Sequence record: PZ179883.1
Direction: 5' to 3' (one strand)
Source of the DNA: a phage
Length of the DNA: 64,000 nt
This document shows positions 9,877 through 41,871 of the stretch, piece after piece (position 1 is the stretch's first letter; every line of letters starts with the position of its first letter). The notes under the pieces were generated by a model. That model was not told the DNA's origin. It ran no database searches and saw only the letters and a list, made by a program, of their open reading frames with translations. Position numbers and translations under genes: made by a program.

Positions 9877-9906
9877 ATAATACCACAGTTTGAACTTGTT
9901 GTAAAC
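9877..9906 (-). promoter_or_regulatory. early promoter (GTTTAC -35, 18 nt, TGGTATTAT extended -10)
   Basis: Minus strand GTTTAC at 9901-9906 and TATTAT at 9877-9882; A/T-rich TTCACAAAG upstream element. Confidence 0.6.
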
Positions 9907-9976
9907 AACTTTGTGAAAATTATTTTAGGGAATGATAAGAAGTGAATGATAGTTAGAATGGTAATATACAGAATGT

Positions 9977-9999
9977 GAGAAAGAAAGGCCCAGAGGGCC
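9977..9999 (-). terminator. intrinsic terminator after nrdH-like gene
   Basis: GGCCC-UCU-GGGCC followed by UUUCUUUCU. Confidence 0.5.
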
Positions 10000-10003
10000 C
10001 ATC

Positions 10004-10312
10004 TTAGTCTTCTATGATATCTCTATCATATCCAAGTGAAATGAGAGTTTCTTTGAAATGTTTAATGTTCTTTTGTCTAGAATCATTAATGAAAATGACT
10101 GGATAACGAATGTTAAGAGATGTGAATCCAGCGCGTTTAGCAAGAGATACAATCAGTGGACGATCATACTCAATCTTACCGTTATTTGTAAGAACTTTAT
10201 AGAAAGTAAAAGGAGCATTGAGCTCCTTTAGAAGTTTTGTAACTGATTGACATCCAGGACAACGACCTACTTCATCTGGAATTCCATAGACTTCAATCTT
10301 ATTTTGTTTCAC
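10004..10312 (-). CDS. nrdH: glutaredoxin-like protein (NrdH-like)
   Basis: 102 aa with CPGC redox motif; GTG start with AAGGAA RBS; adjacent to nrdG/nrdD. Confidence 0.6.
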   Translation of the reverse strand: MKQNKIEVYGIPDEVGRCPGCQSVTKLLKELNAPFTFYKVLTNNGKIEYDRPLIVSLAKRAGFTSLNIRYPVIFINDSRQKNIKHFKETLISLGYDRDIIED

Positions 10313-10314
10313 AA

Positions 10315-10551
10315 CTATTCCTTACTGAGAGCAGCATTCAGCTTATTAGTAATTTTATCCAGACGCTCATTGAACTCACTAGAAGATAGTCCTTTTTCTG
10401 GAGAAATCAAACTAATCACGAAAAATATAGCAATAAAAGGAATAAGGAAAATAGCTCCAACTGCCATAAACAAAAAGAATGTTACGGTTGTAAGAAAATC
10501 AGCTAAACCTTTACGAAATTTATACATATTTACCCTTAATTGATTAACCAA
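10315..10551 (-). CDS. small membrane protein (78 aa)
   Basis: Hydrophobic stretch AVGAIFLIPFIAIFFVISLI. Confidence 0.45.
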   Translation of the reverse strand: MVNQLRVNMYKFRKGLADFLTTVTFFLFMAVGAIFLIPFIAIFFVISLISPEKGLSSSEFNERLDKITNKLNAALSKE

Positions 10552-10641
10552 GCATTGATAAGCACTAAACTATATTGCGAATAAAATTCTGGACCAAAAT
10601 GAAAAATCATATCATTTATAGTGTCCATAATATAATTCAAT

Positions 10642-11112
10642 TTAATCATGTTTCCACACCCCATCGGTATTTGACCAAAGTCGCTGATTATCTGATCCTC
10701 GCCACAGCTTTTTGGTCGGAAGATTTTTCTCATACTTCCCATCAATAATAACATCAACATATTTAAGCATTTCTAGTTGTTTAATATCTTCAAATTTATA
10801 TCCTGTCCACAACCAAATGCTTTTATTGGGATAAAGATTTTTTACTGTTTGAACAATGCAATGAACAACATCTCGGTTATCAGGATAGAGAGGGTCTCCT
10901 CCAGTTATAGTTAATCCTTCTATATAATCATTATTCAAACATTCAATTAATTGTTCTAGTGTTTCACCAGTGAATGGAACGCCATTTCTAGCATTCCATG
11001 TTGATTTATTATAACAACCTTCGCATTTATGCAAACAACCTGTAACGAAAAGAACGACCCTGCATCCAGGGCCATTCACAAAATCGCAGGGATAAAATCT
11101 ATCGTAATTCAT
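10642..11112 (-). CDS. nrdG: anaerobic ribonucleotide reductase activating protein (radical SAM)
   Basis: 156 aa; CxxxCxxC-type cluster region GCLHKCEGCYN; overlaps nrdD stop. Confidence 0.85.
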   Translation of the reverse strand: MNYDRFYPCDFVNGPGCRVVLFVTGCLHKCEGCYNKSTWNARNGVPFTGETLEQLIECLNNDYIEGLTITGGDPLYPDNRDVVHCIVQTVKNLYPNKSIWLWTGYKFEDIKQLEMLKYVDVIIDGKYEKNLPTKKLWRGSDNQRLWSNTDGVWKHD

Positions 11113-12926: not shown

Positions 12927-13396
12927 TTTAAACTCTTTCTAAGCTGCTTCTTAAATGAAGCTATTAACTGTGTTTTGGTGTCAGATTCATTATATTCAAA
13001 TCCTCTTTGAAGCATCTCGGCCATCATTTCCTCTTTTCCTAAACGAGAAAATTCCTTTGATTTATCTCCAACAAAGTTAGGGTGAATATTGTTTTGGGTG
13101 TAATCGGATTTTAAATAAGTAAGTAAATTTTCTAACCATTCAAGATAATCAACACCTTGTCCCTTTAAGCCAGAACGATTAAATTTATGTTTCATTTGAC
13201 CTTCTGCGGCATTGCAGAGATTACAAAGCAATCCACGTACCTTTCCTGCTTTTGGTCCATTTAATTCATGGTCATGATCAAGATGATTAGCTTGAACATC
13301 AGGATTTAGTTCTCGTTGGCAAATTAAACATTTACCGTTTTGTGCATCATAAAATTTCTGTTTTTCTTCTTTATATAATTTGCCAGTCAATAACAT
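12923..13396 (-). CDS. 49: endonuclease VII (Holliday junction resolvase)
   Basis: 157 aa, MLLTGKLYKEEKQKFYDAQNGKCLICQRELNPDVQANHLDHDHELNG... matches recalled T4 gp49. Confidence 0.9.
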   Translation of the reverse strand: MLLTGKLYKEEKQKFYDAQNGKCLICQRELNPDVQANHLDHDHELNGPKAGKVRGLLCNLCNAAEGQMKHKFNRSGLKGQGVDYLEWLENLLTYLKSDYTQNNIHPNFVGDKSKEFSRLGKEEMMAEMLQRGFEYNESDTKTQLIASFKKQLRKSLK

Positions 13397-13402
13397 AATA
13401 AA

Positions 13403-14259: not shown

Positions 14260-14469
14260 TTAACCCCGAAGCTTATTAAGTTCTTCATAATCAATCCAGG
14301 ATTCTAATCCTGATGGCAAATCAGATTCAATTTCCCAAAGAAGTTCTTCAATTTTCTGAAGACGATCTAATTCTTCGGCTGGAATAGTAACCATTGACGG
14401 AGTTCTTGATACACTAATATCGTAAATCATATTTACCCCAGTTTGACCATGCAATCGCCATATTTCCAT
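14260..14469 (-). CDS. hypothetical acidic protein (69 aa)
   Basis: Track ORF. Confidence 0.4.
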   Translation of the reverse strand: MEIWRLHGQTGVNMIYDISVSRTPSMVTIPAEELDRLQKIEELLWEIESDLPSGLESWIDYEELNKLRG

Positions 14470-14648
14470 TTAGAAATAGACTTTTCACCATTAGAATAAT
14501 AAACTTCGAGTTTAGCACGATTATTTTTAATTTGAATAACCTTGGCTGTCATCAAAGTTCCATACCCGTAATAAACTGCGACTTCATCACCTACATATAC
14601 CGCGCTTCCGCGGTAGTCATGGATATAATCAGTTCCTTCGAGCATCAT
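14433..14648 (-). CDS. hypothetical protein (71 aa)
   Basis: Track ORF, start overlaps nrdC stop. Confidence 0.45.
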   Translation of the reverse strand: MMLEGTDYIHDYRGSAVYVGDEVAVYYGYGTLMTAKVIQIKNNRAKLEVYYSNGEKSISKWKYGDCMVKLG

Positions 14649-16434: not shown

Positions 16435-17436
16435 TTACTTAATTAACTGTAAAGCTTGTTCAAGACGATCCAGGCGATTAACAGATTCTTCCCAAATCCT
16501 TTTAGCCTGTTCATATTCTTTCTGCGCTTTATTAGAAATTTCTAGAGCTTCTTTATAAGCTTTTTCTAATGCAATAACTTCTGGACGAATTTCTACCGAT
16601 TCAGGTGAATCATCAAGATTATCCATTAGTTCCTCAAGGGTAGTTTCTTCTTTAGGAGTATTCACAATTTCTTCGCATTTTTGTTGGTAAATTTCTTTAT
16701 CAGTAGGTGAGTACGCACACTTTACTTCACGAAGACTAACTACAATTTTGTATCCTTCCCAACCGCACACATTCTTAAAAGGATAAGTATGAATATTTTC
16801 GACTGTTTCCATACAAAGTAGTGCAGTCTCTAATTGACGAGTTATATCACTAGCAATTGAGAAAAATTTATTAATGTTCTTTTGATTAGCTTCTGGTGTA
16901 AAAAATTCATAATTCACAAAAATAGCTGCTTTATTTTTATCAAGCTCATATTCTTTTATGATAATCATATCAGAAGCCCAAGGATGAATTTGACGATAAT
17001 CACCATAGCATAATTTAGAAGCTGATTTTAGAATTTGCTTTTTGAAAAGTCTGAAATTACTAATCCAACGACGAGTAAAAATATTCTCAGGGTCTTCTTT
17101 ATTATTAAGATGATAAGAATTAACATCACCGAACCAATTATATCCTACTACATCTTTGGTTCGTTTAATTTCTTTCCCAAAATTACCAAGAATATCCTGA
17201 TTAACTAAATATGAAAGAAGACGAGAACCTTTAAAGGTTTCCTTAATATCACCTTTATCTTCGCGACTAGAAATTTTATGAACTTCATGAATAAATTTGC
17301 TGGAAGAAACAATGCTTACATCAATATTATTGAGCCATTGATTGATAATGGAAATCACGCTATTCTGACTAGACACAGGTTTAACTTTATCATCAATAAC
17401 GCTGTTGAATGATTTGATATATTCATTACGAGTCAT
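16435..17436 (-). CDS. coiled-coil-tailed paralog family member 2 (333 aa)
   Basis: ATG with GAGGAG RBS, downstream of early promoter; shares RLFKKQILKSASKL motif and C-terminal coiled coil. Confidence 0.6.
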   Translation of the reverse strand: MTRNEYIKSFNSVIDDKVKPVSSQNSVISIINQWLNNIDVSIVSSSKFIHEVHKISSREDKGDIKETFKGSRLLSYLVNQDILGNFGKEIKRTKDVVGYNWFGDVNSYHLNNKEDPENIFTRRWISNFRLFKKQILKSASKLCYGDYRQIHPWASDMIIIKEYELDKNKAAIFVNYEFFTPEANQKNINKFFSIASDITRQLETALLCMETVENIHTYPFKNVCGWEGYKIVVSLREVKCAYSPTDKEIYQQKCEEIVNTPKEETTLEELMDNLDDSPESVEIRPEVIALEKAYKEALEISNKAQKEYEQAKRIWEESVNRLDRLEQALQLIK

Positions 17437-17464
17437 ATTAATCTCCTCAGTAGAAAGTAAGAAT

Positions 17465-19883: not shown

Positions 19884-20411
19884 TTATGCGAGTACCGTCT
19901 TTAACCGTTCTTCAAACTTCCGAAGAGTATTTTGGCGTTCAGCTCTTTGCTTTTTGTAAGTTTCAATACGCTCTGAAATGAGAGAGTATCGTTCATTTAC
20001 TGATTCTTTCATAAAATCAGGAATTTCACGAGAAGCTTTAATCTCGTCAAATTTATCAATAACAGCTTGCTCTTCAGCAATTAAGTTATCATACATTAAA
20101 ATATCTTTCTTGATGAACTCAATATCTTCTTGAGTTACACGAGACATTTTAGATGCTTTATCCTTTTTGTACTGTTCGTTAGTATCACGAGACCAGTGTA
20201 ATGTACGATTTTTATTCGTATTCTTGTAAATTTCTACAATACCGATCTCATCAATAATAACGATCCAATTCCAACGGGATTTGTAAATTTGTCCTCCATC
20301 AACAGTGATTTCACCTCCGATTGAGATGTCGTTAAAGAACTTGCTTTGCGCTTCAGATTTAAATTTGCCATCGTTGTAATTTACCAAGTTGAAAATATCT
20401 TTAGCGTTCAT
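19884..20411 (-). CDS. hypothetical protein (175 aa)
   Basis: ATG 20409-20411 with GGAGGAA RBS directly downstream of early promoter. Confidence 0.55.
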   Translation of the reverse strand: MNAKDIFNLVNYNDGKFKSEAQSKFFNDISIGGEITVDGGQIYKSRWNWIVIIDEIGIVEIYKNTNKNRTLHWSRDTNEQYKKDKASKMSRVTQEDIEFIKKDILMYDNLIAEEQAVIDKFDEIKASREIPDFMKESVNERYSLISERIETYKKQRAERQNTLRKFEERLKTVLA

Positions 20412-20439
20412 TTTCTGTTCCTCCGTAGTTGATAGTTGT

Positions 20440-20469
20440 ATAGTACCACAGAGGAACAGTCTTGTAAAC
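20440..20469 (-). promoter_or_regulatory. early promoter (GTTTAC, 18 nt, TGGTACTAT)
   Basis: GTTTAC 20464-20469, TACTAT 20440-20445; upstream of ATG 20411. Confidence 0.6.
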
Positions 20470-20876: not shown

Positions 20877-21845
20877 TTATTTCAGAAGAGTAACCTCAGC
20901 GATTTCTTGCCAACCGTTTTTGTCGGTCATAATAAAGTCAGCAAGATAAAGAGCAGTACGCAGTGAAACATTGCGTAAACGATTAACATTGACTTTCATC
21001 CATGATAATGCTTTATAAGTTTCTTCATCAGAAAGACCGCGCTTTTGCATCATGTCAGTTGAAAGAATAACATCTTCAACCCTGACCATAATTTCTTCAT
21101 TAGTGTGAACACCCAAATCCAAATAAACTGAGCGGGACACCAATGCTTGTAAGTGTGGGGCAAGTTTAGTACCACGGTCTAATTCGCGGTCAATGTCAAC
21201 GTTTGTGATAAAAACAATCGTTCCTTTAAATTCAAACTCACGGTCAATGCCTTTTTCTTCTAAGTAAGAAGATGCAGTGCTCCAGCAGACTTTACGGGTC
21301 TCTCCAGTGTCCAGAGCAGCTTTTAGAAGATTAAGAATGTCCATATCAGAGAAAACATCCACATCATCAATCAAAAGGACGGAATTCTCTTCACGATTAT
21401 TCCAAAGCTGTTCATAAAGACCAATACCAGAGATTTTACCATTAATGCTTTTATATTCAATGTATCCATTATCATTTGCTTTATTTAAAGCTTTATCTAA
21501 AGAATACGTTTTACCAATACCTGCTGCGCCAGAGATAATTAATGAACGAATATTTCCATTAATAATACCGTTCGTCATCATTCCCATAACATTAAATCTT
21601 TTATTAATGCGGGTTTTCATATCTTCATATGATTCTTTAACTTCTTCAACTTTTACACCATCATATGAAATATCTGATTTGTAAACCCAAACACCGCGAC
21701 GTTTACCGTCAATTTCAACAAAAACTTTACCATCTCCTTGTGCATCTACCGGAGCATTATCTGGGAACCATTCACCTAAGAGCTCAAAAGTTCCAGAGAT
21801 TTCTTTACCGAAGTAGATACCCTTATTGATAGTTACAGTTTTCAT
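20877..21845 (-). CDS. AAA+/P-loop ATPase-like protein
   Basis: From ATG 21843-21845 (track start is GTG): Walker A GAAGIGKT, Walker B VLLIDDVD, sensor FITN; GGAGAA RBS. Confidence 0.6.
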   Translation of the reverse strand: MKTVTINKGIYFGKEISGTFELLGEWFPDNAPVDAQGDGKVFVEIDGKRRGVWVYKSDISYDGVKVEEVKESYEDMKTRINKRFNVMGMMTNGIINGNIRSLIISGAAGIGKTYSLDKALNKANDNGYIEYKSINGKISGIGLYEQLWNNREENSVLLIDDVDVFSDMDILNLLKAALDTGETRKVCWSTASSYLEEKGIDREFEFKGTIVFITNVDIDRELDRGTKLAPHLQALVSRSVYLDLGVHTNEEIMVRVEDVILSTDMMQKRGLSDEETYKALSWMKVNVNRLRNVSLRTALYLADFIMTDKNGWQEIAEVTLLK

Positions 21846-21881
21846 TTTATTCTCCAATTTCACATTTGTTTTGATAGGGTA

Positions 21882-21911
21882 ATAGTATCACACTACTACC
21901 CTGCTGTAAAC
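21882..21911 (-). promoter_or_regulatory. early promoter (GTTTAC, 18 nt, TGATACTAT)
   Basis: GTTTAC 21906-21911, TACTAT 21882-21887; GATAGGGTA...TACCCT inverted repeat around -10. Confidence 0.55.
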
Positions 21912-21914: not shown

Positions 21915-22178
21915 TTATTTTAATGTTTGCCAAATTTTTACTGCTTCGCGACGAGATACTTCTACAGCTCCAAGTTCTACAGCTTTTTGGCGTCGCCGAG
22001 CGTGTAAGTCATAATGTTTAATGCGTTTATCTTGAAACCAAGAACGTTTCATTCCTATTGCTTCTGCCATTTCGTGAAGCTCTTCAATATCTCCATCAGT
22101 GAACATATGACAATTTTTAGTTGGATGACCGCGAAGTTTCCATCCATGATTCATTAAAACATCTACGTAAACTGTCAT
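21915..22178 (-). CDS. hypothetical protein (87 aa)
   Basis: Track ORF. Confidence 0.45.
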   Translation of the reverse strand: MTVYVDVLMNHGWKLRGHPTKNCHMFTDGDIEELHEMAEAIGMKRSWFQDKRIKHYDLHARRRQKAVELGAVEVSRREAVKIWQTLK

Positions 22179-22324
22179 TGATTCTTCTCCAAATAAGTTT
22201 CGATAATTTTCTGAGCGAGATAAACTGCATTATCTTCAGTTGCATCTTCTAAGAAACTTTCAAAACACTCTGAAATTTCTTCTGTGTCAATCAACTTTTT
22301 TACTTCAATTGGTGTAATTTTCAT
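22175..22324 (-). CDS. small acidic protein (49 aa)
   Basis: Track ORF 22175-22393 trimmed to ATG 22322-22324; the extension would read through the promoter at 22362-22391. Confidence 0.4.
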   Translation of the reverse strand: MKITPIEVKKLIDTEEISECFESFLEDATEDNAVYLAQKIIETYLEKNQ

Positions 22325-22391: not shown

Positions 22392-22415
22392 AATTTTGTG
22401 AAAAATTTTTGAAAT

Positions 22416-22440
22416 AAAAAAGGGAGCCCGAAGGCTCCCT
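22416..22440 (-). terminator. intrinsic terminator after NTase-fold gene
   Basis: AGGGAGCC-UUCG-GGCUCCCU followed by UUUUUAUUU. Confidence 0.65.
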
Positions 22441-25001: not shown

Positions 25002-25113
25002 AATTACATACTCCTTTGAATAATATCAATAATGTTGTTCACCAGATTATAAGTAAACATTGGATAATTATATTGAATCATCACATACACAACAAACAAA
25101 ACTTTCATTCTCT

Positions 25114-25149
25114 TCTCCTTGGCAGTTGACAAGATTACTATATCATAAT
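25114..25149. repeat. 14 bp perfect inverted repeat with 8 bp spacer
   Basis: AGTTGACAAGATTA - CTATATCA - TAATCTTGTCAACT. Confidence 0.8.
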
Positions 25150-25156
25150 CTTGTCA
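25127..25156 (-). promoter_or_regulatory. candidate early promoter overlapped by a 14 bp inverted repeat
   Basis: GTTTAC 25151-25156, TATAGT 25127-25132; inverted repeat AGTTGACAAGATTA/TAATCTTGTCAACT at 25114-25149 spans the -10 and spacer. Confidence 0.4.
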
Positions 25157-25167
25157 ACTTGTAAACC

Positions 25168-25964: not shown

Positions 25965-25989
25965 TGAAAAAAGTCTCCCGAAGGAGACT
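25965..25989 (-). terminator. intrinsic terminator after rI-adjacent gene
   Basis: AGUCUCC-UUCG-GGAGACU followed by UUUUUUCAUUUU. Confidence 0.65.
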
Positions 25990-26937: not shown

Positions 26938-27519
26938 CTAACCGAGCTTTTTAGTTAATTCGTTCCAATGTTTTCTACACAAAGAAACATAAATTTCATC
27001 ACCAATACAGATTTGATTACCTTCTTTAACTGGTGTTCCATCTTCCATTAATCGAGCTGTCATAATAGCTTTTTTACCACAATGACAAACTGCCTTTAGT
27101 TCAATAAGTTTATCTGCAATCGCCAAAAGTTCTTTAGAACCTTCAAATAATTTTCCAGCGAAATCAGTCCTTAGCCCATAAGCCATAACAGGAACATTAT
27201 ATGTATCAACAATTCGACTTAATTGATGCACCTGTTCAGTTTTTAAAAACTGAGCTTCATCTACAAATACACAATGAATATCTTTTTGTGCTTCAGCCCA
27301 TTTATAGAACTCAAAAATATCCATATCATCCGTAATAATATTCGCTTCCTGCTTAATTCCAATGCGAGAAACGACTTCACAGACAGAATCGCGAGTATCA
27401 ATAGCAGGCTTAAGAACTAATACACCCATTCCGCGTTCTTTATAATTATGTGCAGCAGTCAAAAGAGAAGCAGATTTTCCAGCATTCATTGCTGCGTAAG
27501 TAAAAATTAAACTCGCCAT
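26938..27519 (-). CDS. tk: thymidine kinase
   Basis: 193 aa; P-loop YAAMNAGKS, zinc-ribbon cysteines CHCG...C. Confidence 0.9.
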   Translation of the reverse strand: MASLIFTYAAMNAGKSASLLTAAHNYKERGMGVLVLKPAIDTRDSVCEVVSRIGIKQEANIITDDMDIFEFYKWAEAQKDIHCVFVDEAQFLKTEQVHQLSRIVDTYNVPVMAYGLRTDFAGKLFEGSKELLAIADKLIELKAVCHCGKKAIMTARLMEDGTPVKEGNQICIGDEIYVSLCRKHWNELTKKLG

Positions 27520-27528
27520 ATCACCTTC

Positions 27529-27714
27529 TTAAAGCATATTCACATAAGCTATTAATTCGTTTTCTTTCTTATCAAACCGATCAGCAAATTCTTCTTGCTG
27601 TTCGGGAGATAGCGGGCCGTATTCATCATAAAAGGTGTTTGCTTCTGTATGCTCATCTAGAAGTTCATGGATAAGCTCAAACAATTTATCTTTTTGTTCT
27701 TTACTCAGACTCAT
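27529..27714 (-). CDS. hypothetical acidic protein (61 aa)
   Basis: Track ORF. Confidence 0.4.
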   Translation of the reverse strand: MSLSKEQKDKLFELIHELLDEHTEANTFYDEYGPLSPEQQEEFADRFDKKENELIAYVNML

Positions 27715-27880
27715 ATATTAATTTCCAGGAGTTTTAAAATAATTCGCTTTTGCTTAAATATTTCCATAGTTAAATGACCAGTATCTTTTTGACCGATTCC
27801 AATGGCAAAACCTTTATTGACAGCGAGTTCAATTAAATTATCAAGCTCACGTAACACTTCATACTGTAACTCAAAACTAT

Positions 27881-28093
27881 TCATTTCGGTTTACCTTCTT
27901 TAACGAAATCTGGATAAGGATAAAATCCCGAATAAAATCCTTCACCTTTATGATTGATGCATCCTTTATTAGAACAATAGCACCAATAATCGAAATCACA
28001 AGCCATTTCATCGTTGCATAAAGCAAAAACAACTGGCCATTTACACTTTTCACAATGGGCATTTTTAAGAATACTAGTTTGGCTCATAACCAT
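27881..28093 (-). CDS. cysteine-rich small protein (70 aa)
   Basis: Multiple CxxC-like pairs (CEKCKW, CDFDYWCYC, CINH). Confidence 0.45.
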   Translation of the reverse strand: MVMSQTSILKNAHCEKCKWPVVFALCNDEMACDFDYWCYCSNKGCINHKGEGFYSGFYPYPDFVKEGKPK

Positions 28094-29649: not shown

Positions 29650-30111
29650 TCATTGAGTTTTAATTACTGCTTTAGAAGCCTTTCCTGGTAAACGACGACT
29701 GTTGATAATTGCCATCCTACATTGAAGTGACGGGTCTTTGAACTTCGCGTTAGGTTTACAAACTGTAAATCCAAGCCAAAGATTTCCATCTGTGATTTCT
29801 AAACGTCCAGGACGATATTCAACCCCATCAATAAAATCCTCGTCAATGTCAGGACGCGGAGGCATACTCAGGAATTCATTAACTTCTAAAACATGGTCTT
29901 TTATTTTATGGAATAATTCAAAAACATATGTCTCATCAATCTCCCGTTGAATTGCACGATCAAGAAGATGCTGAGAATATTTTAGATGAAACGATGAGAC
30001 CCCTGCTGCTTTTGATGCCTCACGAATCTCATTGTTAATTTGACGAAACTCCGACTCAAAGTGACGACGAAGCTTATTTCGACGGATAAAAACTTCTGTA
30101 TTGATAGTCAT
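29650..30111 (-). CDS. regB: endoribonuclease RegB
   Basis: 153 aa, same length and position as T4 regB; early promoter immediately upstream. Confidence 0.65.
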   Translation of the reverse strand: MTINTEVFIRRNKLRRHFESEFRQINNEIREASKAAGVSSFHLKYSQHLLDRAIQREIDETYVFELFHKIKDHVLEVNEFLSMPPRPDIDEDFIDGVEYRPGRLEITDGNLWLGFTVCKPNAKFKDPSLQCRMAIINSRRLPGKASKAVIKTQ

Positions 30112-30138
30112 GTTATTCTCCTCTTAACTGATAGAAAA

Positions 30139-30168
30139 ATTATACCACAGTCAAGAGGAAAAGTAAAC
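30139..30168 (-). promoter_or_regulatory. early promoter upstream of regB (GTTTAC, 18 nt, TGGTATAAT)
   Basis: GTTTAC 30163-30168, TATAAT 30139-30144; 28 nt before regB ATG. Confidence 0.65.
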
Positions 30169-32310: not shown

Positions 32311-32727
32311 TTAAATGTAAATATTTTTGCCGTAATACTTATACCAGTGTGGCTTCATTAAAATTTTTTCATCGAGTCGTTGTTGACTCAACTTAATAGC
32401 TGATTTGCATGGATTATAATCATTTTTCCATTCTACTGGAATATCGCTGATGTCAGGAACTTCAGTATCTTTTATACTGAACCCGCGTTTTAAGCATTCC
32501 GTTATAATGTCCGATTGACGCTTTCGCAAAAATTCTAACTTATCGTAAAAGAAAGTAACATGACCAGAACCTAAAATAAATTTAGAAGATATTTTAAAAT
32601 CTTTAACGCGCTTACCATTTGCCACATGTTTACGAACTATACCAAAAACACGTGGCAATTCACGATACTCAGCCATAAGATGTTGGTCGGTCAGTTCAGA
32701 AACAAGTGTTAAATTGATACGAGTCAT
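32311..32727 (-). CDS. denV: endonuclease V (pyrimidine dimer DNA glycosylase)
   Basis: From ATG 32725-32727 with GGAGGA RBS: [29 protein letters not shown]..., 138 aa, matches recalled T4 DenV. Confidence 0.9.
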
Positions 32728-32754
32728 AATTTCCTCCAAGTAGTTGATGAATGT

Positions 32755-32784
32755 ATAGTATCAAAGTCCTTGGAGGAAGTAAAC
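32755..32784 (-). promoter_or_regulatory. early promoter upstream of denV
   Basis: GTTTAC 32779-32784, TACTAT 32755-32760; between ipII stop and denV start. Confidence 0.6.
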
Positions 32785-32785: not shown

Positions 32786-33588
<803 letters not shown>

Positions 33589-34044
33589 TTAAAAGAGGCT
33601 GTTCATTATTCGGTAAAGTGAAGGGCCCATCACATATTGCCACTGAGTACGAGGAATAAGGGCAAAAGCATCCATCTCTGGAATCATAACACCATCTTTA
33701 TTTTCAAAATAAGACTCGCAATGGCAATTTCTAAACATCTCATGCTCTACTGGAATCGTATAATAAAATAACTGTAAGTCTTTATTACTAGAATATTTAA
33801 ATACACCTAGGTCTTCTAGAAGGTCTGGATTATAATTGCTAAAACCAGTCTCTTCTAAACATTCTCTTCGTGCTGCATCTAGTGCGTTTAAATCAGAATT
33901 TTCTACACGGCCTTTTGGAATATCCCAGCGATGTGCCATCATTCCAGGCTTACGAGAACCAGTAACCCGTCCCATGAATAAATCTTTATCTTCTGTCATA
34001 AAGATAATACCAGCTGATAATGTTTTCATTTTAATTTCCTGCAT
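33589..34044 (-). CDS. nudE: Nudix hydrolase
   Basis: 151 aa; Nudix box GRVENSDLNALDAARRECLEETG. Confidence 0.8.
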   Translation of the reverse strand: MQEIKMKTLSAGIIFMTEDKDLFMGRVTGSRKPGMMAHRWDIPKGRVENSDLNALDAARRECLEETGFSNYNPDLLEDLGVFKYSSNKDLQLFYYTIPVEHEMFRNCHCESYFENKDGVMIPEMDAFALIPRTQWQYVMGPSLYRIMNSLF

Positions 34045-36459: not shown

Positions 36460-36560
36460 AGTATTTCCTTAGGTTAATTGAGATTTAAAATCCGTAGGAG
36501 TATAATACTCTATCGTCAAATTATAGGCTCATAATATCTCAATCATGAGCCTGCGTAAAC

Positions 36561-36897: not shown

Positions 36898-37020
36898 AGT
36901 TTTGTGAAAAAATTTTTAGGGAATTCTAGGGCAGGGATGGGCAATTAAAGGATAGGATAATATATTATAAAGGGTATAAACTAAATGATGCCTAGAGAGG
37001 TCCAGAAAGGCCTAGATACC

Positions 37021-37046
37021 AAAAAGCCCTATCATTTAGATAGGGA
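37021..37046 (-). terminator. intrinsic terminator after internal-protein-like gene 37054-37617
   Basis: CCCUAUC-UAAAU-GAUAGGG followed by CUUUUUGG. Confidence 0.55.
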
Positions 37047-37053
37047 TTTAAAA

Positions 37054-37617
37054 TTATTTACCTAGTTTACTTATTATAGCTTCTGCAGCAGCTTTTAGCT
37101 TAGATGCAGTGTTAATACGATTTTTAATTTCAGTATACGCATCGCCAAGAACATCAAGGCTATCAGAATAAACACTTACACTATTGCGTTCGCTATTTGA
37201 AATAGAACCTTTAGTTTTGCGGTCAAAATCGGTGTACACGTCTTGAAGATCGCGGGCTGCCTTCTTTGCATCATCCAATGCATCAAGAGCTTTATTCAAA
37301 GCATTAACGTATTTTTTAGTGTCGAACATATTCTTAGAAATTTTAACAGGTGCGCGTTCAGGAGTAGCTAACACAGATTTAGGAACCTGAGCGCCAGATG
37401 CCAATTTCTTAGAAATTTTGAAAAATGCTTTATTGAATTTATTTTCTTGACTCATTGTAAAAGAACTATTATCGATGTTGTACATTTCAATAGCTTTAGC
37501 TTTCCACTTAAGAAAATCGCCGCGGTCTTTTGGGTCCAATTGGAAGAATACTTTAGTAAGATCTGCTTCAGATGGTAATTTTGCTGCTTCGGTTAAAAAT
37601 TCGGCATAGGTTTTCAT
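37054..37617 (-). CDS. internal-protein-like gene with capsid targeting sequence (187 aa)
   Basis: N-terminus MKTYAEFLTE; Ala/Lys-rich body; terminator hairpin after stop. Confidence 0.6.
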   Translation of the reverse strand: MKTYAEFLTEAAKLPSEADLTKVFFQLDPKDRGDFLKWKAKAIEMYNIDNSSFTMSQENKFNKAFFKISKKLASGAQVPKSVLATPERAPVKISKNMFDTKKYVNALNKALDALDDAKKAARDLQDVYTDFDRKTKGSISNSERNSVSVYSDSLDVLGDAYTEIKNRINTASKLKAAAEAIISKLGK

Positions 37618-37706
37618 TTAAAATCCTTGAAATAATTTATCGGTTGGTTATTAATTATTTATTACTTTGTTACTATCCGTAACAGCGTTATCCGAGTGAT
37701 TCAAAC

Positions 37707-37735
37707 TAAAAAGCCCCAACCTTTCGGTCGGGGCT
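37707..37735 (-). terminator. intrinsic terminator, copy 1 of a 31-nt identical element
   Basis: Minus-strand GCCCCGACC-GAAA-GGUUGGGGC followed by UUUUUAG; identical to 38262-38291. Confidence 0.7.
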
Positions 37736-37742
37736 AAGAATG

Positions 37743-38216
37743 TCATTTGATTTGTTTAGCAGACCAAATGCGGTCTTTAATAATTTTTTGGATGTCTTCA
37801 ACATACTCAAGAGAGTGAACATGTGGATTATCTTTGAAACTATAAGCACGGGCTAACTTTTGGCCTTCGGTTTTGATTACTAAAAGCTCTTTAAGGATAG
37901 CTTCATATTTAGCGATAATTCCTTTAACGATATTTTTTTCTTGTGCCGCTTTAGGATCTGCTTTAGGAGCAGGTTTACCCGAAGCCTTTGCAAAAGCAGC
38001 GCCAGTAGCAACTAAACTTTTCCAGGCCATACTAACTGCATTTCCCGTAAATCCTTCCGCTTTCATGTCGCGTGCAAACTGGAATCGCGATTCATCAGAA
38101 GCATCTTTATAGGAATATTTACCCGCGGCAATGGCAGCTTTTGCAACAGCTTGAATTTCGGTGCTAGATGCTTCATTTAACACCGCTTCATTTAAAAATT
38201 GAGTATATGATTTCAT
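37743..38216 (-). CDS. internal-protein-like gene with capsid targeting sequence (157 aa)
   Basis: ATG 38214-38216 with AGGAAA RBS gives MKSYTQFLNEAVLNEAS; track N-terminal extension overlaps the terminator. Confidence 0.6.
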   Translation of the reverse strand: MKSYTQFLNEAVLNEASSTEIQAVAKAAIAAGKYSYKDASDESRFQFARDMKAEGFTGNAVSMAWKSLVATGAAFAKASGKPAPKADPKAAQEKNIVKGIIAKYEAILKELLVIKTEGQKLARAYSFKDNPHVHSLEYVEDIQKIIKDRIWSAKQIK

Positions 38217-38253
38217 CTTATTTCCTGTTTTAATTTGTAGATTTAATATACTA

Positions 38254-38261
38254 ATATTTAT
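38254..38261 (-). promoter_or_regulatory. late promoter box TATAAATA upstream of internal-protein-like gene
   Basis: Minus-strand TATAAATA abutting terminator 38262-38291 and 38 nt upstream of ATG 38216. Confidence 0.5.
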
Positions 38262-38291
38262 ACCAAAAAGCCCCAACCTTTCGGTCGGGGC
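38262..38291 (-). terminator. intrinsic terminator, copy 2 of the 31-nt element
   Basis: Same hairpin plus U tract, at the downstream edge of the tRNA/small RNA region. Confidence 0.7.
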
Positions 38292-38342
38292 TAAGCCTTG
38301 CGGCAACCTTGTCGGGGTTCCACCTGCTAAGGCAAGTGTTTG

Positions 38343-38434
38343 TACGAAACGCCGGGATTCGAACCCGGTTATTAAGTAGTTGACGCTACTCAATATTTTT
38401 AAAAGGCCATATCTCGACCATATCCGAACGTTCC
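38343..38434 (-). ncRNA. tRNA-like small RNA candidate (perfect T-arm, 7 bp acceptor-like helix, non-canonical core)
   Basis: CCGGG-TTCGAAT-CCCGG T-arm at 38351-38367; 38344-38350 pairs with 38428-38434 (one G-U); no canonical anticodon arm; lies between CDS 38600-38950 and a terminator. Confidence 0.35.
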
Positions 38435-38599
38435 GTCAAAAACGCTACTCGGCTTACGGCAAAGATATTTCCTCGAATCGATAATTCGGTGCGCCGTTTC
38501 TGCTGTGATAGTAAAGAGCCAGAACACAGTAAAACTGTGGGAGGAAACTATACTCCAGGGAACATCAGTCCGACGACTTACCGGTAGCGACCCGGTTTC

Positions 38600-38950
38600 T
38601 TAATATTCTTTTAAAGAATCAATATATTCACGGCGTTTACGCCACAAATCAATTGCTTCATACGCGGATTCAGCATTTCGAATTAGCCGGCATTTATGTA
38701 AAGACTTATGATTTTGATATTGTGTAGATAACGGAATTGTATCTAAAAGGTCTTTACGATCAAAATATTCGTAACCATCTAAACCAAATGAACGATTTTT
38801 GAGAAATTGCCAATGACCATATTCGTTTTCGACATAAACATAATCTGCATGCTGATAAAGCAAATTAATTACACGTTCAGAAATAACAGTATCATTATGA
38901 TTAAAATAGAATGTTAAATCATGAACTACTAAATAAACATTACCTTTCAT
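38600..38950 (-). CDS. hypothetical protein (116 aa) embedded in tRNA/small RNA region
   Basis: ATG 38948-38950 with GAGGAAAA RBS, 17 nt downstream of tRNA-Arg. Confidence 0.55.
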   Translation of the reverse strand: MKGNVYLVVHDLTFYFNHNDTVISERVINLLYQHADYVYVENEYGHWQFLKNRSFGLDGYEYFDRKDLLDTIPLSTQYQNHKSLHKCRLIRNAESAYEAIDLWRKRREYIDSLKEY

Positions 38951-38966
38951 ATTTTCCTCACTTAAT

Positions 38967-39042
38967 TGGTCGAGGCAGTAGGGATCGAACCTACGACCTA
39001 GGACTTAGAAGGTCCTTGCTCTTCCTTCTGAGCTATGCCCCG
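38967..39042 (-). tRNA. tRNA-Arg (anticodon TCT), CCA encoded
   Basis: Manual fold: 7 bp acceptor, T-loop TTCGATC, anticodon loop CTTCTAA. Confidence 0.85.
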
Positions 39043-39046
39043 TAAT

Positions 39047-39128
39047 TGGGGTGACCGATGGGAGTCGAACCCATGACTACGAGAATCACAATCACAATCT
39101 CGAGTTCTACCAACTGAACTACGGCCAC
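39047..39128 (-). tRNA. tRNA-His-like (GTG) with 13-nt anticodon loop; possible pseudo-tRNA
   Basis: Acceptor, D-arm, T-arm and discriminator C resemble tRNA-His; anticodon stem CGAGA/TCTCG encloses TTGTGATTGTGAT. Confidence 0.55.
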
Positions 39129-39242
39129 ATTAATACCTACTCCAACAATCAAGATGTCTTCACACGAAATTAAGAGAAGAGTGATCAGTTCAACCCCTAT
39201 AATCGCGTCAAGTAGATATTAATGTGACAGTTGTCACAAATT

Positions 39243-39317
39243 TGGCGGACGTGATAGGATTCGAACCTATAACCAATCGCTTAACAGGCGATCGCTCTGC
39301 CATTGAGCTACACATCC
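39243..39317 (-). tRNA. tRNA-Asn (anticodon GTT), CCA encoded
   Basis: Manual fold: acceptor GGATGTG/CACGTCC, anticodon loop CTGTTAA, T-loop TTCGAAT. Confidence 0.85.
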
Positions 39318-39321
39318 AAAT

Positions 39322-39408
39322 TGGTGGGGAGTGGTGGAGTCGAACCACCCGAGTCGCAATGACAATGGATTTACAGTCCACACCGCTACCTCTACGGGAT
39401 AACTCCCC
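39322..39408 (-). tRNA. tRNA-Tyr (anticodon GTA), long variable arm, CCA encoded
   Basis: Manual fold: anticodon loop CTGTAAA, T-arm GGTGG-TTCGACT-CCACC. Confidence 0.8.
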
Positions 39409-39417
39409 AAATTAATT

Positions 39418-39492
39418 TGGTGGCCCTGGGTGGAATTGAACCACCATCTGGCGATTATGAGTCGCTTGCTTGAACCTTCCAGCTACAGGGCC
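39418..39492 (-). tRNA. tRNA with CAT anticodon (Ile2-type as in T4, or Met)
   Basis: Manual fold: acceptor GGCCCTG/CAGGGCC, anticodon loop CTCATAA. Confidence 0.75.
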
Positions 39493-39493
39493 T

Positions 39494-39569
39494 TGGTGCT
39501 GATTGACGGAATCGAACCGCCGACCTTCTCATTACAAGTGAGTTGCTCTACCTACTGAGCTAAATCAGC
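39494..39569 (-). tRNA. tRNA-Thr (anticodon TGT), CCA encoded
   Basis: Manual fold: acceptor GCTGATT/AATCAGC, anticodon loop CTTGTAA. Confidence 0.85.
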
Positions 39570-39574
39570 AAAAC

Positions 39575-39664
39575 TGGCGGAGGCGATAGGATTTGAACCT
39601 ATGAGTCGCCGGAGCGACTGCCGGTTTTCAAGACCGGTGCATTAAACCACTCTGCCACGCCTCC
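39575..39664 (-). tRNA. tRNA-Ser (anticodon TGA), long variable arm, CCA encoded
   Basis: Manual fold: anticodon arm CCGGT-CTTGAAA-ACCGG, T-loop TTCAAAT. Confidence 0.85.
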
Positions 39665-39666
39665 AG

Positions 39667-39740
39667 TCTCCGTGGCAGGATTTGAACCTACGACATTCTG
39701 CTCCCAAAGCAGACGCTCTACCAAACTGAGCTACACGGAG
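39667..39740 (-). tRNA. tRNA-Pro (anticodon TGG), CCA not encoded
   Basis: Manual fold: acceptor CTCCGTG/CACGGAG, anticodon loop TTTGGGA. Confidence 0.85.
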
Positions 39741-39750
39741 TAAATTAAAT

Positions 39751-39824
<74 letters not shown>

Positions 39825-39829
39825 AAATT

Positions 39830-39916
39830 TGGTGCGAGAAGTGGGACTCGAACCCACAAGGAAATCATTCCGCAGCATTTTAAGTGCTGTGCCTTTACCA
39901 ATTTGACCATTCTCGC
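39830..39916 (-). tRNA. tRNA-Leu (anticodon TAA), long variable arm, CCA encoded
   Basis: Manual fold: acceptor GCGAGAA/TTCTCGC, anticodon loop CTTAAAA. Confidence 0.85.
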
Positions 39917-39922
39917 TCTATA

Positions 39923-40531
39923 TTATTTATTACGTGAAAAAGATTGTTCTATCAATTCTGGACACTTTCGTTCTATCCATTTTCTAGCTTTTTGTGGGCT
40001 TATACCTATTATTTTAGCAGCTTTACTAACCCATCCAAATTTAGAATAATCGATTTTAACTAATTCTTCGTAAATTTCATCAGTTAAAATCTTTTCATTA
40101 ATATTTACCAGTAAATGATATAATTTATTATCATTAGCAATTTTAATGAATCTTTTATAGTTTCCGCCTTTACTTAAACCTAATGAAGTAATTGCAGATG
40201 ATATAGTAGCCGAATTTAATAATGCGTTTAAAATTTCTTCATCACTAACATTATAACGCTTTTTATTATTTTTAATATTTTTACCAGCAAAAGTATCAGT
40301 TTGCGAATGGCAATTTGGACATAATAATCTTAAATTTGATTTAAGATGATTTTTGTTATTTCCATCAATATGGTCTAATTGCAGAACAATATGCTTATTT
40401 TGCCATTTTGAAATTTTACAAATTGCACACTCATATGGAAAAATATTTTCTTTTATTATTTTGTCTTTCAGCTTTCCTGTACTAAAATTTGGATGTTTTC
40501 CTTCAAAAATTTCAGCTAATTTAGTATCCAT
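39923..40531 (-). CDS. HNH homing endonuclease-like protein
   Basis: HNH motif LQLDHIDGNNKNH...LLCPNCHSQTD; 202 aa from ATG 40529-40531 (track start 40555 is TTG); stop abuts tRNA-Leu. Confidence 0.7.
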   Translation of the reverse strand: MDTKLAEIFEGKHPNFSTGKLKDKIIKENIFPYECAICKISKWQNKHIVLQLDHIDGNNKNHLKSNLRLLCPNCHSQTDTFAGKNIKNNKKRYNVSDEEILNALLNSATISSAITSLGLSKGGNYKRFIKIANDNKLYHLLVNINEKILTDEIYEELVKIDYSKFGWVSKAAKIIGISPQKARKWIERKCPELIEQSFSRNK

Positions 40532-40641
40532 AATATAATTCCCAATTATTAACAAAGGCTCTCTAACAAGAACCCTTGATGATAGAGGGTATTAATCAGT
40601 GCGATATGAGTTAATAATAACAAATAATTCTTAAAGCATAT

Positions 40642-40929
40642 TTACCATTTATAATAATACATATTTACGATGCATTCAAGACCCAAAGGATTCTTGAAAA
40701 TATCATATTCAAGAGGACCTTTTTCTGTTTCAATAAAGAAATCAAAATTTACTGTATTAAATTTACGTTCTTCCTTCACTAATTTAACTTGAGAAGATGA
40801 ACGGTCAATGTAAACCTTTTCAACTTCAAAACATGTTAAAATGCCATAATCATCAATCAAAGCTTTAGCCGCGTCTTGATCATATTTATATCCATTTTCA
40901 ATGGATGATACTTTCGCATAAAGAATCAT
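40642..40929 (-). CDS. hypothetical protein (95 aa)
   Basis: Track ORF. Confidence 0.45.
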   Translation of the reverse strand: MILYAKVSSIENGYKYDQDAAKALIDDYGILTCFEVEKVYIDRSSSQVKLVKEERKFNTVNFDFFIETEKGPLEYDIFKNPLGLECIVNMYYYKW

Positions 40930-40931
40930 TA

Positions 40932-41330
40932 TCAGCCTTCATCAACAATAGTGTGAGTATTAGCATTTACGATTTGCCACCAATCAAAGCGATTAGAATC
41001 CATCGGTTTGTTTTCATTTTCTTTGATAATGTCACGGAGTTCATCTTCAGAGAATGCTTTAGCAATTAAATCGGTATACCCACCACGGGGATAATAATTA
41101 TCACCTGCAAACAAAAGGAAATTTACCTTCCCGGAAGCAACATATGCTTCCTTAGGATACTTGTTTCCTGCGTGGTCAACCACTTCAATATAACGGTAAG
41201 GAATATCGGTTCTTTCAACCCATTGCCATGCCGCCGCAGGGGAATCGAAAGCATCTACACCTAAACGATTATCTTCATCTTTAGACGGATTATTTTCGTA
41301 ATCCGCATATACATAATATTCAACGTTCAT
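40932..41330 (-). CDS. hypothetical protein (132 aa)
   Basis: Track ORF. Confidence 0.45.
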   Translation of the reverse strand: MNVEYYVYADYENNPSKDEDNRLGVDAFDSPAAAWQWVERTDIPYRYIEVVDHAGNKYPKEAYVASGKVNFLLFAGDNYYPRGGYTDLIAKAFSEDELRDIIKENENKPMDSNRFDWWQIVNANTHTIVDEG

Positions 41331-41515
41331 TATTCACCTTTAGAAATTTTATCCATAACAATAGCAATTAAACCAATTAAAAATGCTACTACAAGTGAAA
41401 ACACATTTTCTGCTGTAGTCAATAATCCACATATAAATCCAACAAACATTGAAAAACTAAAAGCGGAAGCAGAAATTGCAATAGCAACATTTCGAATTAA
41501 TTCACAACGTTTCAT
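41330..41515 (-). CDS. small membrane protein (61 aa)
   Basis: Two hydrophobic segments; downstream of early promoter. Confidence 0.45.
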   Translation of the reverse strand: MKRCELIRNVAIAISASAFSFSMFVGFICGLLTTAENVFSLVVAFLIGLIAIVMDKISKGE

Positions 41516-41543
41516 TTTATTCTCCTCAGTAGTAGATAGGGTA

Positions 41544-41573
41544 ATAGTATCACTACCCTATCTAAAAGTAAAC
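41544..41573 (-). promoter_or_regulatory. early promoter with perfect 9 bp inverted repeat around -10
   Basis: GTTTAC 41568-41573, TACTAT 41544-41549; GATAGGGTA (41534-41542) / TACCCTATC (41553-41561). Confidence 0.55.
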
Positions 41574-41807
41574 TTATTTTTTACGAAAAATTGATTTATT
41601 TTCTGCTGCCCATTTTTCAATAACTGCAGCAGGACCAGTAACAACAATTTTATCACCGTAATCTTCTGCGGCGAGTTGACCGAAATTATCTAATGCATCA
41701 CGAAGAACTCCATGAGGCATTTCACCCATTTTATCTTTCTTGCCAGTGTAAATAAACTCAACTTTTACATCAGCAGTTTCAGCAATAAATTCTTGGTAAG
41801 TTTTCAT
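41574..41807 (-). CDS. ipI: internal protein I-like (capsid targeting sequence MKTYQEFIAE)
   Basis: ATG 41805-41807 gives the canonical IPI targeting sequence; alternative ATG at 41819 adds MEIK. Confidence 0.6.
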   Translation of the reverse strand: MKTYQEFIAETADVKVEFIYTGKKDKMGEMPHGVLRDALDNFGQLAAEDYGDKIVVTGPAAVIEKWAAENKSIFRKK

Positions 41808-41841
41808 TTTGATTTCCATTTGGTTTTGTTTTGATAGGGTA

Positions 41842-41871
41842 ATAGTATCACAACTAAAACCCTATGTAAAC
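41842..41871 (-). promoter_or_regulatory. early promoter upstream of ipI
   Basis: GTTTAC 41866-41871, TACTAT 41842-41847; ATAGGGT...ACCCTAT inverted repeat; TTCACAAAGTT upstream element. Confidence 0.55.

Follow-up and report, generated by a model that had tools for sequence, protein, structure and literature searches.

Canonical T4-type early promoters in phage sequence PZ179883.1, with predicted read-through hairpins in their spacers and leaders

A 64,000-nucleotide stretch of phage DNA (sequence record PZ179883.1; hereafter the window) carries, between positions 9877 and 41871 of its minus strand, a family of repeated promoter-like modules. The question raised by this locus is what these modules are, and what the inverted repeats that often accompany them might do. 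The window is a segment of a Tequatrovirus (T4-like) genome, 95-98% identical to many Tequatrovirus genomes, with Escherichia phages DCP2 and UTI-E4 and Yersinia phage fPS-65 among the near relatives in this range. Its G+C content is about 35%, it is colinear with T4 over ~31.2-96.7 kb of the T4 map at 86-98% identity, and gene orientation flips near 45 kb. The interval 9877-41871 matches the stretch of the T4 early region between gene 55.6 and ipI, and all its genes lie on the minus strand, which is meant for every feature described below unless the plus strand is named. The reading proposed here, to which a probability of roughly 0.8 is given, is that the modules are twelve canonical T4 early promoters (Pe) which double as homology of the published early-promoter/stem-loop (PeSL) type, and on which a layer of read-through hairpins is superimposed in about half of the cases.

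A scan with the motif GTTTAC-N15-TGRTAYWRT revealed exactly 12 matches in the window. The minus strand carries every one of them, with those at 9877-9906 and 41842-41871 as the outermost. As the expectation from 100 dinucleotide shuffles was 0.02 (sd 0.14), chance occurrence was rejected. A position weight matrix (PWM) built from T4 early promoters gave these 12 sites 20.7-57 bits, the rest of the window no more than 8.5 and the shuffles a maximum of 11.6. The initial annotation had described a minus-strand family of at least twelve near-identical modules over this same range. The family and its limits were recovered, but the motif scan and PWM fix the canonical members at exactly twelve, and "near-identical" is too strong a word, the mean pairwise identity over 100 nt being 44% (29-59%) compared with 27% for random pairs. 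GTTTAC is exact at the -35 position of all twelve sites and stands, as had been annotated, always 18 nt from the -10 hexamer; TGG or TGA followed by TAnnnT is likewise present in 12/12. The annotated -10 consensus TG(G/A)TA(C/T)(T/A)AT fits eleven of them, the departure being TATAGT at 25137-25166. The A+T content over -30 to -1 relative to GTTTAC is 57-90%, and a Shine-Dalgarno sequence (SD) and an ATG follow each site 20-50 nt downstream, at +20 to +40. The upstream element TTCACAAA, attributed earlier to every module, is exact in four (9910-9917, 22395-22402, 36901-36908 and 41875-41882, upstream of the sites at 9906, 22391, 36897 and 41871), always 3 nt before GTTTAC; the other eight differ from it by 1-4 mismatches, yet are A/T-rich.

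The two -10 sub-classes of the initial annotation are real. With each promoter named by the position of the G of its GTTTAC, class 1 (TGGTACTATACAACTATC) comprises P20469, P22391 and P36897, with GATAGTTGTATAGTACCA at 20431, 22353 and 36859, and P25956 is a TGA variant of it (25918). Class 2 (GTGATACTATTACCCTATC) comprises P21911, P41573 and P41871, with GATAGGGTAATAGTATCAC at 21873, 41535 and 41833. The ACCCTAT/ATAGGGT inverted repeat ascribed to class 2 is exact in two of its three members (plus-strand ACCCTAT at 41555 and 41859) and imperfect at 21911. What had passed unnoticed is that inverted repeats are general in the family, beyond the ACCCTAT sub-class, and that they often involve the SD. 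Four degenerate candidates were found besides the twelve sites, at 36531-36560, 43320-43349, 11008-11036 and 4445-4474.

These features are in agreement with the published T4 early promoter, in which an A-rich UP-like region precedes GTTTAC at -36 to -31, and TGn and a -10 element follow (PMC1524935, PMC2988021). In the T4 records AF158101 and NC_000866 the sole promoter annotation is a single note that names Pe133295, and orthology was therefore established by motif scanning, together with alignment to T4. The whole T4 genome contains 31 GTTTAC-N15-TGN-TAnnnT sites, all on the early strand, and nine of the twelve window sites are orthologous to T4 sites of matching sequence. The pairs, with the window site first and the G of GTTTAC as T4 coordinate, are P9906 (9877-9906) and 41706, P17494 (17465-17494) and 50973, P20469 (20440-20469) and 53943, P22391 (22362-22391) and 55384, P25166 (25137-25166) and 57990, P25956 (25927-25956) and 58780, P30168 (30139-30168) and 62797, P36897 (36868-36897) and 70696, and P41871 (41842-41871) and 73939. 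P32784 (32755-32784) and P41573 (41544-41573) share the gene positions of T4 sites 65413 and 73572 with different spacer sequences (at P32784 the leader differs as well), which brings the counterparts to 11/12; P21911 (21882-21911) has no counterpart among the T4 sites. The original compilations of T4 early promoters are reportedly those of Liebig and Rueger (1989) and of Wilkens and Rueger (1994).

The position of the start could be fixed because the named Pe133295 lies 36 nt downstream of the GTTTAC at 133331; a search for genome-wide data on T4 transcription starts returned none. On this spacing and on orthology with T4, +1 is predicted at the A of a conserved cTATCA at 9870, 20433, 21875, 22355, 25920, 30132, 36861, 41537 and 41835, and at 17458, 25130 and 32748 for P17494, P25166 and P32784. 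The initially transcribed sequence is likewise conserved (class 1: AUCAACUAC...). Primer-extension stops have been reported at the T4 mobD.5 promoter (PMC1702504), and T4 regB has an early promoter and a tightly limited synthesis (PMC3014915 section 11). With 11/12 T4 counterparts, the Pe133295 match and the published consensus all in agreement, the early-promoter reading holds: judged from their sequence, all twelve belong to the canonical early sigma-70 promoters of the T4 type, a family already known, and they are presumably active in the present phage.

Neither SP18 (Gaprivervirus) nor Bp7 (Dhakavirus) gave a promoter in the strict motif scan; on inspection by eye, SP18 appears to use GTGTAC at -35, and the spacer of Bp7 is one nucleotide shorter. 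Upstream of nrdC.8 and denV, Shigella phage SP18 apparently has GTGTAC rather than GTTTAC and the TG of the extended -10 is often missing, while spacer/leader inverted repeats are still present (AGTATGGGGA...TTCCCATACT).

The -35/-10 spacer of these promoters is often the reverse complement of the sequence just downstream. The duplex of each spacer (-33 to -13) with its own leader was therefore compared with the duplexes it forms with the leaders of other promoters. In the window, the 14 promoters (the 12 canonical and 2 degenerate ones) gave a mean of -13.5 kcal/mol for cognate against -8.4 kcal/mol for non-cognate pairs (0/50000 permutations). The 31 T4 promoters behaved alike (-12.6 against -7.9 kcal/mol; 0/100000), as did 13 promoters of Mosigvirus G2285 (-13.9 against -8.9 kcal/mol; 0/20000). 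Folding of the RNA from -36 to the ATG gave hairpins of -15 to -25.5 kcal/mol with z values of -3.1 to -6.6, in the range of the established gene e hairpin of the window, used as positive control (-16.2 kcal/mol, z -3.9). In the gene e (lysozyme) leader itself (33540-33625), the hairpin AUACCUUCU...AGGAGGUAU masks the SD, and late-promoter TATAAATA motifs lie both in and before its 5' arm. A search of Rfam at the promoter hairpins returned no family, the matches being tRNAs only.

The hairpins fall into two classes, designated A and B independently of the -10 sub-classes. In class A, an anti-SD run (CCTC or CTCC) in the spacer pairs with the SD of regB, denV and nrdC.8, and in gene 1 the AUG is covered. 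The nrdC.8 hairpin at P20469 (20415-20459; -25.5 kcal/mol, z -6.6) has its 5' arm in the spacer (20445-20459), the SD GGAGG in its 3' arm (20415-20429) and the -10 in the loop. At regB (30116-30162; -22.4 kcal/mol, z -5.2), spacer sequence UUUUCCUCUUGACUG (30145-30162) pairs with the SD-containing CAGUUAAGAGGAGAA (30116-30134), and at denV (32731-32778; -17.8 kcal/mol, z -4.5) UUCCUCCAAG (32769-32778) pairs with CUUGGAGGAA (32731-32740), which is the SD. The gene 1 hairpin (43288-43336; -14.9 kcal/mol, z -3.1) belongs to the degenerate member at 43320-43349 (GTTTAA-N15-TGT-TATAAT; orthologue of T4 75429), upstream of the dNMP kinase gene (42569-43294). In class B, a tight hairpin surrounds the -10 and does not reach the SD. 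This is the case at P41573 (41533-41564; 14 bp enclosing TGATACTAT; -19.5 kcal/mol, z -4.6), at P21911 (21876-21902, closely around the -10; -16.5 kcal/mol, z -3.1), at P25166 (25125-25158; 14 bp enclosing the -10; -17.7 kcal/mol, z -6.3) and at P41871, whose hairpin ATAGGGU/ACCCUAU occupies 41834-41865.

The pairing with the SD is supported by its enrichment and by covariation. Anti-SD 4-mers occur in 13 of the 31 T4 spacers, against a background of 9.4% (p = 2e-6), and in five of the twelve window spacers (p = 0.005). For regB, 27 distinct promoter/leader variants collected from IMG/VR contain at least 9 different stems at the same place, for example CCTCTTGACTG/CAGTTAAGAGG, TTCTCCTCTAGTTG/CAACTAGAGGAGAA, TTTCTCCTCTTTATG/CATAAAGAGGAGAAA, ATCCTCATTTG/CAAATGAGGAT and ATCTCCTTTTAG/CTAAAAGGAGAT; cognate pairs reach -18.5 kcal/mol and non-cognate pairs -11.6 kcal/mol (p < 2e-5). 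When the two strands were anchored only on CTCC and GGAG, the regB flanks still gave 4.5 contiguous paired positions for cognate against 1.85 for non-cognate combinations (p < 2e-5), and the denV flanks 4.0 against 1.1 (p = 0.002). In several T4-like lineages, the denV spacer has no anti-SD; it is found instead in the discriminator, as TATGAT-GTCCTCC...GGAGGAC, immediately after the -10 and still upstream of the predicted +1.

Furthermore, the sense strand folds more stably; its advantage over the antisense strand is 2.4 kcal/mol for cognate and 0.45 kcal/mol for non-cognate pairs (0/20000 permutations), and G-U pairs made up 31 of 209 in the sense stems and 8 of 175 in the antisense stems. 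This strand preference and the excess of G-U pairs argue for a function in RNA rather than in duplex DNA or as a protein operator.

The following mechanism is proposed. Host sigma-70 RNA polymerase would recognise the A/T-rich UP-like tract, the GTTTAC of -36 to -31, TGn and, at -12 to -7, TAnnnT, start at the A of cTATCA, 36 nt after the G of GTTTAC, and drive the gene directly downstream. In roughly half of the promoters, the bases that are not critical to this recognition, in the 15-nt spacer or the discriminator behind the -10, would serve as an arm complementary to the promoter's own leader. As this 5' arm lies upstream of the predicted +1, the hairpin would form only in RNA that reads through from upstream and not in the promoter's own transcript. 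Most likely, a class A cistron would then be translated efficiently only from its own early transcript, or only when the stem is opened by a ribosome terminating on the adjoining upstream ORF, and its expression would track the short-lived early promoter although read-through transcription continues.

The computed cost of opening the SD-AUG region is compatible with this scheme. It is 7.7 kcal/mol in read-through RNA against 3.3 kcal/mol in the own transcript in T4 (p = 7e-5), and 7.2 against 3.7 kcal/mol in the window (p = 0.008). The cost is bimodal, class A requiring 12-17 kcal/mol in the window and 10-18 kcal/mol in T4, and class B showing no rise. The predicted values for read-through and own transcript are 16.7 and 5.4 kcal/mol for nrdC.8, 14.3 and 4.7 for regB, and 12.0 and 3.0 for denV. 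Masking of at least 6 kcal/mol from upstream sequence affects 9/25 Pe-proximal T4 genes and 10/158 other minus-strand open reading frames (ORFs; Fisher p = 1.5e-4). From these data we infer a role of the hairpins in translational gating or coupling in polycistronic early mRNA. Our preferred reading is that class A genes would be translated mainly from their own immediate-early transcript, which fits the tightly limited synthesis of regB.

Several observations weigh against this reading. About half of the promoters lack a significant hairpin (e.g. P22391 and P36897), and class B does not cover the SD, leaving it even slightly more open than foreign upstream sequence does, so that one function cannot explain all cases. 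Read-through masking is not significant when compared with foreign upstream regions (p = 0.12 in T4, 0.09 in the window). This is attributed to the SDs being all alike, so that other anti-SD spacers cross-pair with them, and the anti-SD enrichment, the control with non-Pe genes and the motif-anchored flank test were used in place of such chimeras. Promoters with a canonical upstream terminator tend to lack a hairpin, with a borderline Mann-Whitney p = 0.05 obtained on non-independent orthologues; one terminator call in this comparison, at P25166, looks spurious. In vivo, the stems might be opened by ribosomes that end translation 6-17 nt upstream of the 5' arm. The functional claims for the present phage rest on orthology and prediction, and the repeats may already be described in the older T4 literature (Liebig and Rueger 1989, the 1994 T4 book, Miller et al. 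2003). In the reviews and papers that were covered, no mention was found of early-promoter spacers serving as anti-SD arms; the primary compilations of 1989-2003 lay outside this coverage, which makes priority uncertain. The whole proposition, namely that the hairpins are real, that they act on translation, so that on read-through RNA about one in three promoter-proximal early cistrons would be silent or need coupling, and that they were not previously described, is accordingly put forward tentatively, at somewhat less than even odds.

Other functions have to be weighed against this translational role. In the published PeSL reading, the stem-loops are transcription terminators or attenuators that insulate each cassette. 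Those of RB49 and phi1 lie between -35 and -10 or overlap the -10, and PeSL211/210 lowered lacZ expression to an extent similar to that of the rrnB T1 terminator (PMC2839356); the class B hairpins of the window also sit right after the upstream stop codon and leave the SD untouched. The strong hairpins, however, are never followed by a U-tract, the next 8 nt holding 1.4-1.6 T where ~2.6 are expected and real terminators have at least 5. The bona fide terminators of the window look different, each being a GC-rich stem with a UUCG loop followed by T6: GGGAGCCTTCGGGCTCCC at 22416-22439, directly upstream of P22391, and AGTCTCCTTCGGGAGACT at 25967-25989, directly upstream of P25956. The promoter stems are A/U-rich, unlike the polyG/polyC stems of RB49, and in class A the 3' arms have the SD as their anchor and covary with the sequence on either side of it, which is not required of a terminator. 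Termination is thus an unlikely explanation, although attenuation or 3'-end stabilisation may apply to class B. A second function on RNA would be translational coupling, in which the SD stays covered until the foot of the stem is melted by a ribosome that terminates on the adjoining upstream ORF, so that downstream translation of the polycistronic RNA would scale with upstream translation. The geometry is suggestive: at promoters with strong hairpins the upstream stop ends 6-17 nt before the 5' arm and mostly 0-7 nt before GTTTAC, the part of the 5' arm nearest to it is the anti-SD, and where upstream stops are 37-72 nt away, terminators and weak hairpins are found instead. The footprint of a ribosome extends about 9-11 nt past the stop codon, and a terminating ribosome would in most stems reach only the first 0-5 of 10-18 bp; a stop codon next to the -35 may, moreover, simply reflect tight gene packing. 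Coupling as the principal function is possible, but we regard it as doubtful.

Protection from nucleases is a less probable purpose, and quite an unlikely one. The stems would shield GGAG from RegB, or serve upstream messages as 3' stabilisers or sites of processing, and so let long transcripts survive to express distal genes. RegB does need single-stranded GGAG and is inhibited by structure, 16 RegB-resistant T4 RNAs having a structured GGAG (PMC1702504), and the 3' ends of T4 RNAs are thought to be stable ends rather than terminators (PMC6024815). But the resistance of the T4 denV GGAG was put down to sequence 3' of it and not to structure (PMC1702504), and the class B hairpins contain no GGAG. 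Protection is also compatible with a translational role rather than exclusive of it. An action at the DNA level, as cruciforms, operators or recombination signals, or a passive by-product of copying a consensus cassette, is very improbable. Its appeal is that the modules are recombination junctions and that sub-class repeats are common to several promoters (ATAGGGTA...TACCCTAT in Tequatrovirus, ATAGGACTA...TAGTCCTAT in Mosigvirus). Between promoters, however, the stems vary in sequence yet stay complementary, which leaves no common protein site. The greater stability of the sense strand and its four times more G-U pairs are an asymmetry that neither a duplex nor a symmetric cruciform predicts, and compensatory changes occur at orthologous positions in regB and denV.

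The initial annotation had also viewed the modules as substrates for recombination between accessory genes. This is a published idea: PeSL-mediated modular shuffling has been described, including in T4 and PST with the consensus TTTACW-N17-TAYWAT (PMC4122927, PMC2839356), Arbiol et al. (2010, PMC2839356) located the crossovers in the interval from the -10 to the SD, and Comeau et al. (2014, PMC4122927) connected PeSL cassettes with indels, those at the internal-protein locus among them. The window bears it out at two clear junctions. Compared with T4, it holds an extra cassette of ~490 bp with two ORFs, bounded by P22391 and P21911. The single T4 promoter Pe55384 corresponds to the 5' half of P22391 and the 3' half of P21911, with the crossover in a shared CTATCAA between the -10 and the SD. 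Between P41871 and P41573 lies a gene for an internal virion protein different from T4 ipI, and a further break falls inside P32784, where T4 has ipII and ipIII. In the comparison of the window with T4, four of 24 breakpoints fall inside promoter modules, with 0.9 expected (p = 0.012); most other breaks of colinearity flank homing-endonuclease genes. Crossovers inside a module at indels or replacements among close relatives are thus observed at P22391/P21911, P41871-P41573 and P32784. A promoter combined with a stable stem-loop in one intergenic module is found in 8 of the 12 canonical promoters, of which 6 have a hairpin with z <= -3 and 2 an upstream terminator hairpin; the degenerate site at 43349 has a hairpin as well. 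Since conserved blocks over ~100 bp recur every few kb, the modules would act as portable homology for the gain, loss and exchange of cassettes.

The transcription units predicted from these promoters are as follows. P9906 (GTTTAC-N15-TGG-TATTAT) drives the gp55.6 homologue, P17494 (TGG-TATAAT) the nrdC.4 homologue (16435-17436) and P20469 the nrdC.8 homologue (19884-20411). P22391 has no spacer/leader hairpin (E = -1.3), and the T-run of the terminator before it merges into its A/T-rich upstream element. It drives the cassette absent from T4 (21915-22324), whose ORFs at 22175-22324 (phrog_6888) and 21915-22178 (phrog_4887) have no assigned function, and P21911 drives the nrdC.10 homologue (20877-21863). 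P25166 (TGA-TATAGT) precedes a small mobD.2-like ORF (25004-25132), P25956 (TGATACTATACAACTATC) the mobD.5 homologue, P30168 (TGG-TATAAT) regB (29650-30111), P32784 (TGA-TACTAT) denV (ATG at 32727) and P36897 the e.8 homologue. P41573 serves the trna.4 homologue (41330-41515) and P41871 the internal-virion-protein gene (41574-41819, phrog_8111) which stands in place of ipI. The degenerate candidate at 36531-36560 (GTTTAC-N15-AGA-TATTAT, without the TG) has a AGGCUCAU/AUGAGCCU repeat flanking its -10 and lies at a break of colinearity with T4 where e.7 is absent.

The window differs from T4 in other places. T4 mobB, mobC, the I-TevII intron, mobD and segB are either absent or have other sequence in their place, with breaks at 6593/6618, 11092/11112, 12388/12391, 23456/24419 and 38600/39473. 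The tRNA cluster (38967-39916) has 10 genes, including tRNA-Asn, tRNA-Tyr and tRNA-Met, where T4 has 8; ARAGORN gives the tRNA at 39047-39128 an abnormal 2-nt "anticodon (gt)", and Rfam still scores it as a tRNA at 56.6 bits. By this cluster stands an HNH homing-endonuclease ORF of 210 aa (39923-40555; phrog_14736, E = 6e-124), absent at the T4 position. An insertion of ~1.2 kb relative to T4 (37046-38259), between e.8 and the small-RNA/tRNA region, brings ORFs of 187 aa (37054-37617; phrog_2280, function not assigned) and 216 aa (37743-38393). Unrelated sequence replaces the T4 49.2/49.3 region (14261-14644) and tk.1/tk.2 (27519-28083); the 49.2/49.3 exchange of phage PST was ascribed by the PeSL paper to a non-PeSL mechanism.

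As regards the promoters and cassette shuffling first flagged, the present results amount to a rediscovery of known T4 biology from raw sequence, with nothing new in it. Their use here is as an annotation aid, which supplies 12 transcription units, predicted starts and two cassette junctions. Both the promoter family and its recombinational role being already known, the hairpin layer is a plausible addition to a known mechanism. If it is true, the translation of a gene would be tied to the promoter that made its RNA, giving an explanation in cis for sharp immediate-early expression of regB, denV and nrdC.8, and helping to explain the abrupt stop in the production of numerous early proteins despite continued transcription across their genes. 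Part of the PeSL "terminator" stem-loops would have to be reinterpreted, and the late-promoter device of e, soc, 49 and I-TevI would extend to early promoters with the opposite temporal logic. For the engineering of phages this would mean that exchange or removal of an early promoter spacer alters downstream translation from read-through RNA.

Several known systems are close to the elements described. With the T4 early promoters (Hinton 2010, PMC2988021; Nolan et al. 2006, PMC1524935) they have in common the -35, TGn, TAnnnT and the UP-like tract, the position 5' of early genes on the early strand and, for most sites, one-to-one orthology. Nothing essential differs, apart from the extra P21911 that came with the inserted cassette and the spacers of denV and trna.4. 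With the PeSL elements (PMC2839356, PMC4122927) they share the order of A/T-rich tract, early promoter, stem-loop and SD, the enrichment in plastic regions, the placing of crossovers in the interval from the -10 to the SD, the consensus given for T4/PST and the internal-protein locus as a site of shuffling. The PeSL papers, however, read the stem-loops as terminators or attenuators and, for PST and T4, place them just upstream of the promoter, whereas many stems of the window span the -10 and pair the spacer with the SD of its own gene; they have no U-tract and vary in concert with the flanks of the SD. The SD pairing, the missing U-tracts and this covariation point to translation rather than termination. 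The "morons" of lambdoid phages (PMC2839356, PMC1524935) are likewise small accessory genes with their own promoter and sometimes a terminator, but without a flanking, repeated and conserved module that serves as a recombination site.

A further parallel, for the hairpins, is the set of T4 hairpins that sequester the ribosome-binding site and contain an internal promoter, known for e, soc, 49, I-TevI, I-TevII, I-TevIII, segB and Aeh1 mobE (PMC3014915 section 29; PMC2988022). There too, the 5' arm lies upstream of the proximal start, so that only longer transcripts mask the SD or AUG, and the stability is similar, as the gene e hairpin of the window illustrates. In the present family, the SD of regB, denV and nrdC.8 and the AUG of gene 1 are predicted to lie in a stable helix, which is not the case for class B. 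The predicted +1 falls between the two arms, and opening the SD-AUG region of the own transcript would cost 3-5 kcal/mol. What is not found is a late (gp55, TATAAATA) internal promoter delaying expression. By analogy, then, the promoter hairpins would work like the e/soc/49/I-TevI family without being members of it as described. In the known T4 cases the internal promoter is late (TATAAATA), or late or middle for the endonucleases, and its purpose is delay, whereas here it is an early sigma-70 promoter whose spacer or discriminator holds the anti-SD. The effect predicted from this is the opposite one, with expression restricted to the immediate-early burst.

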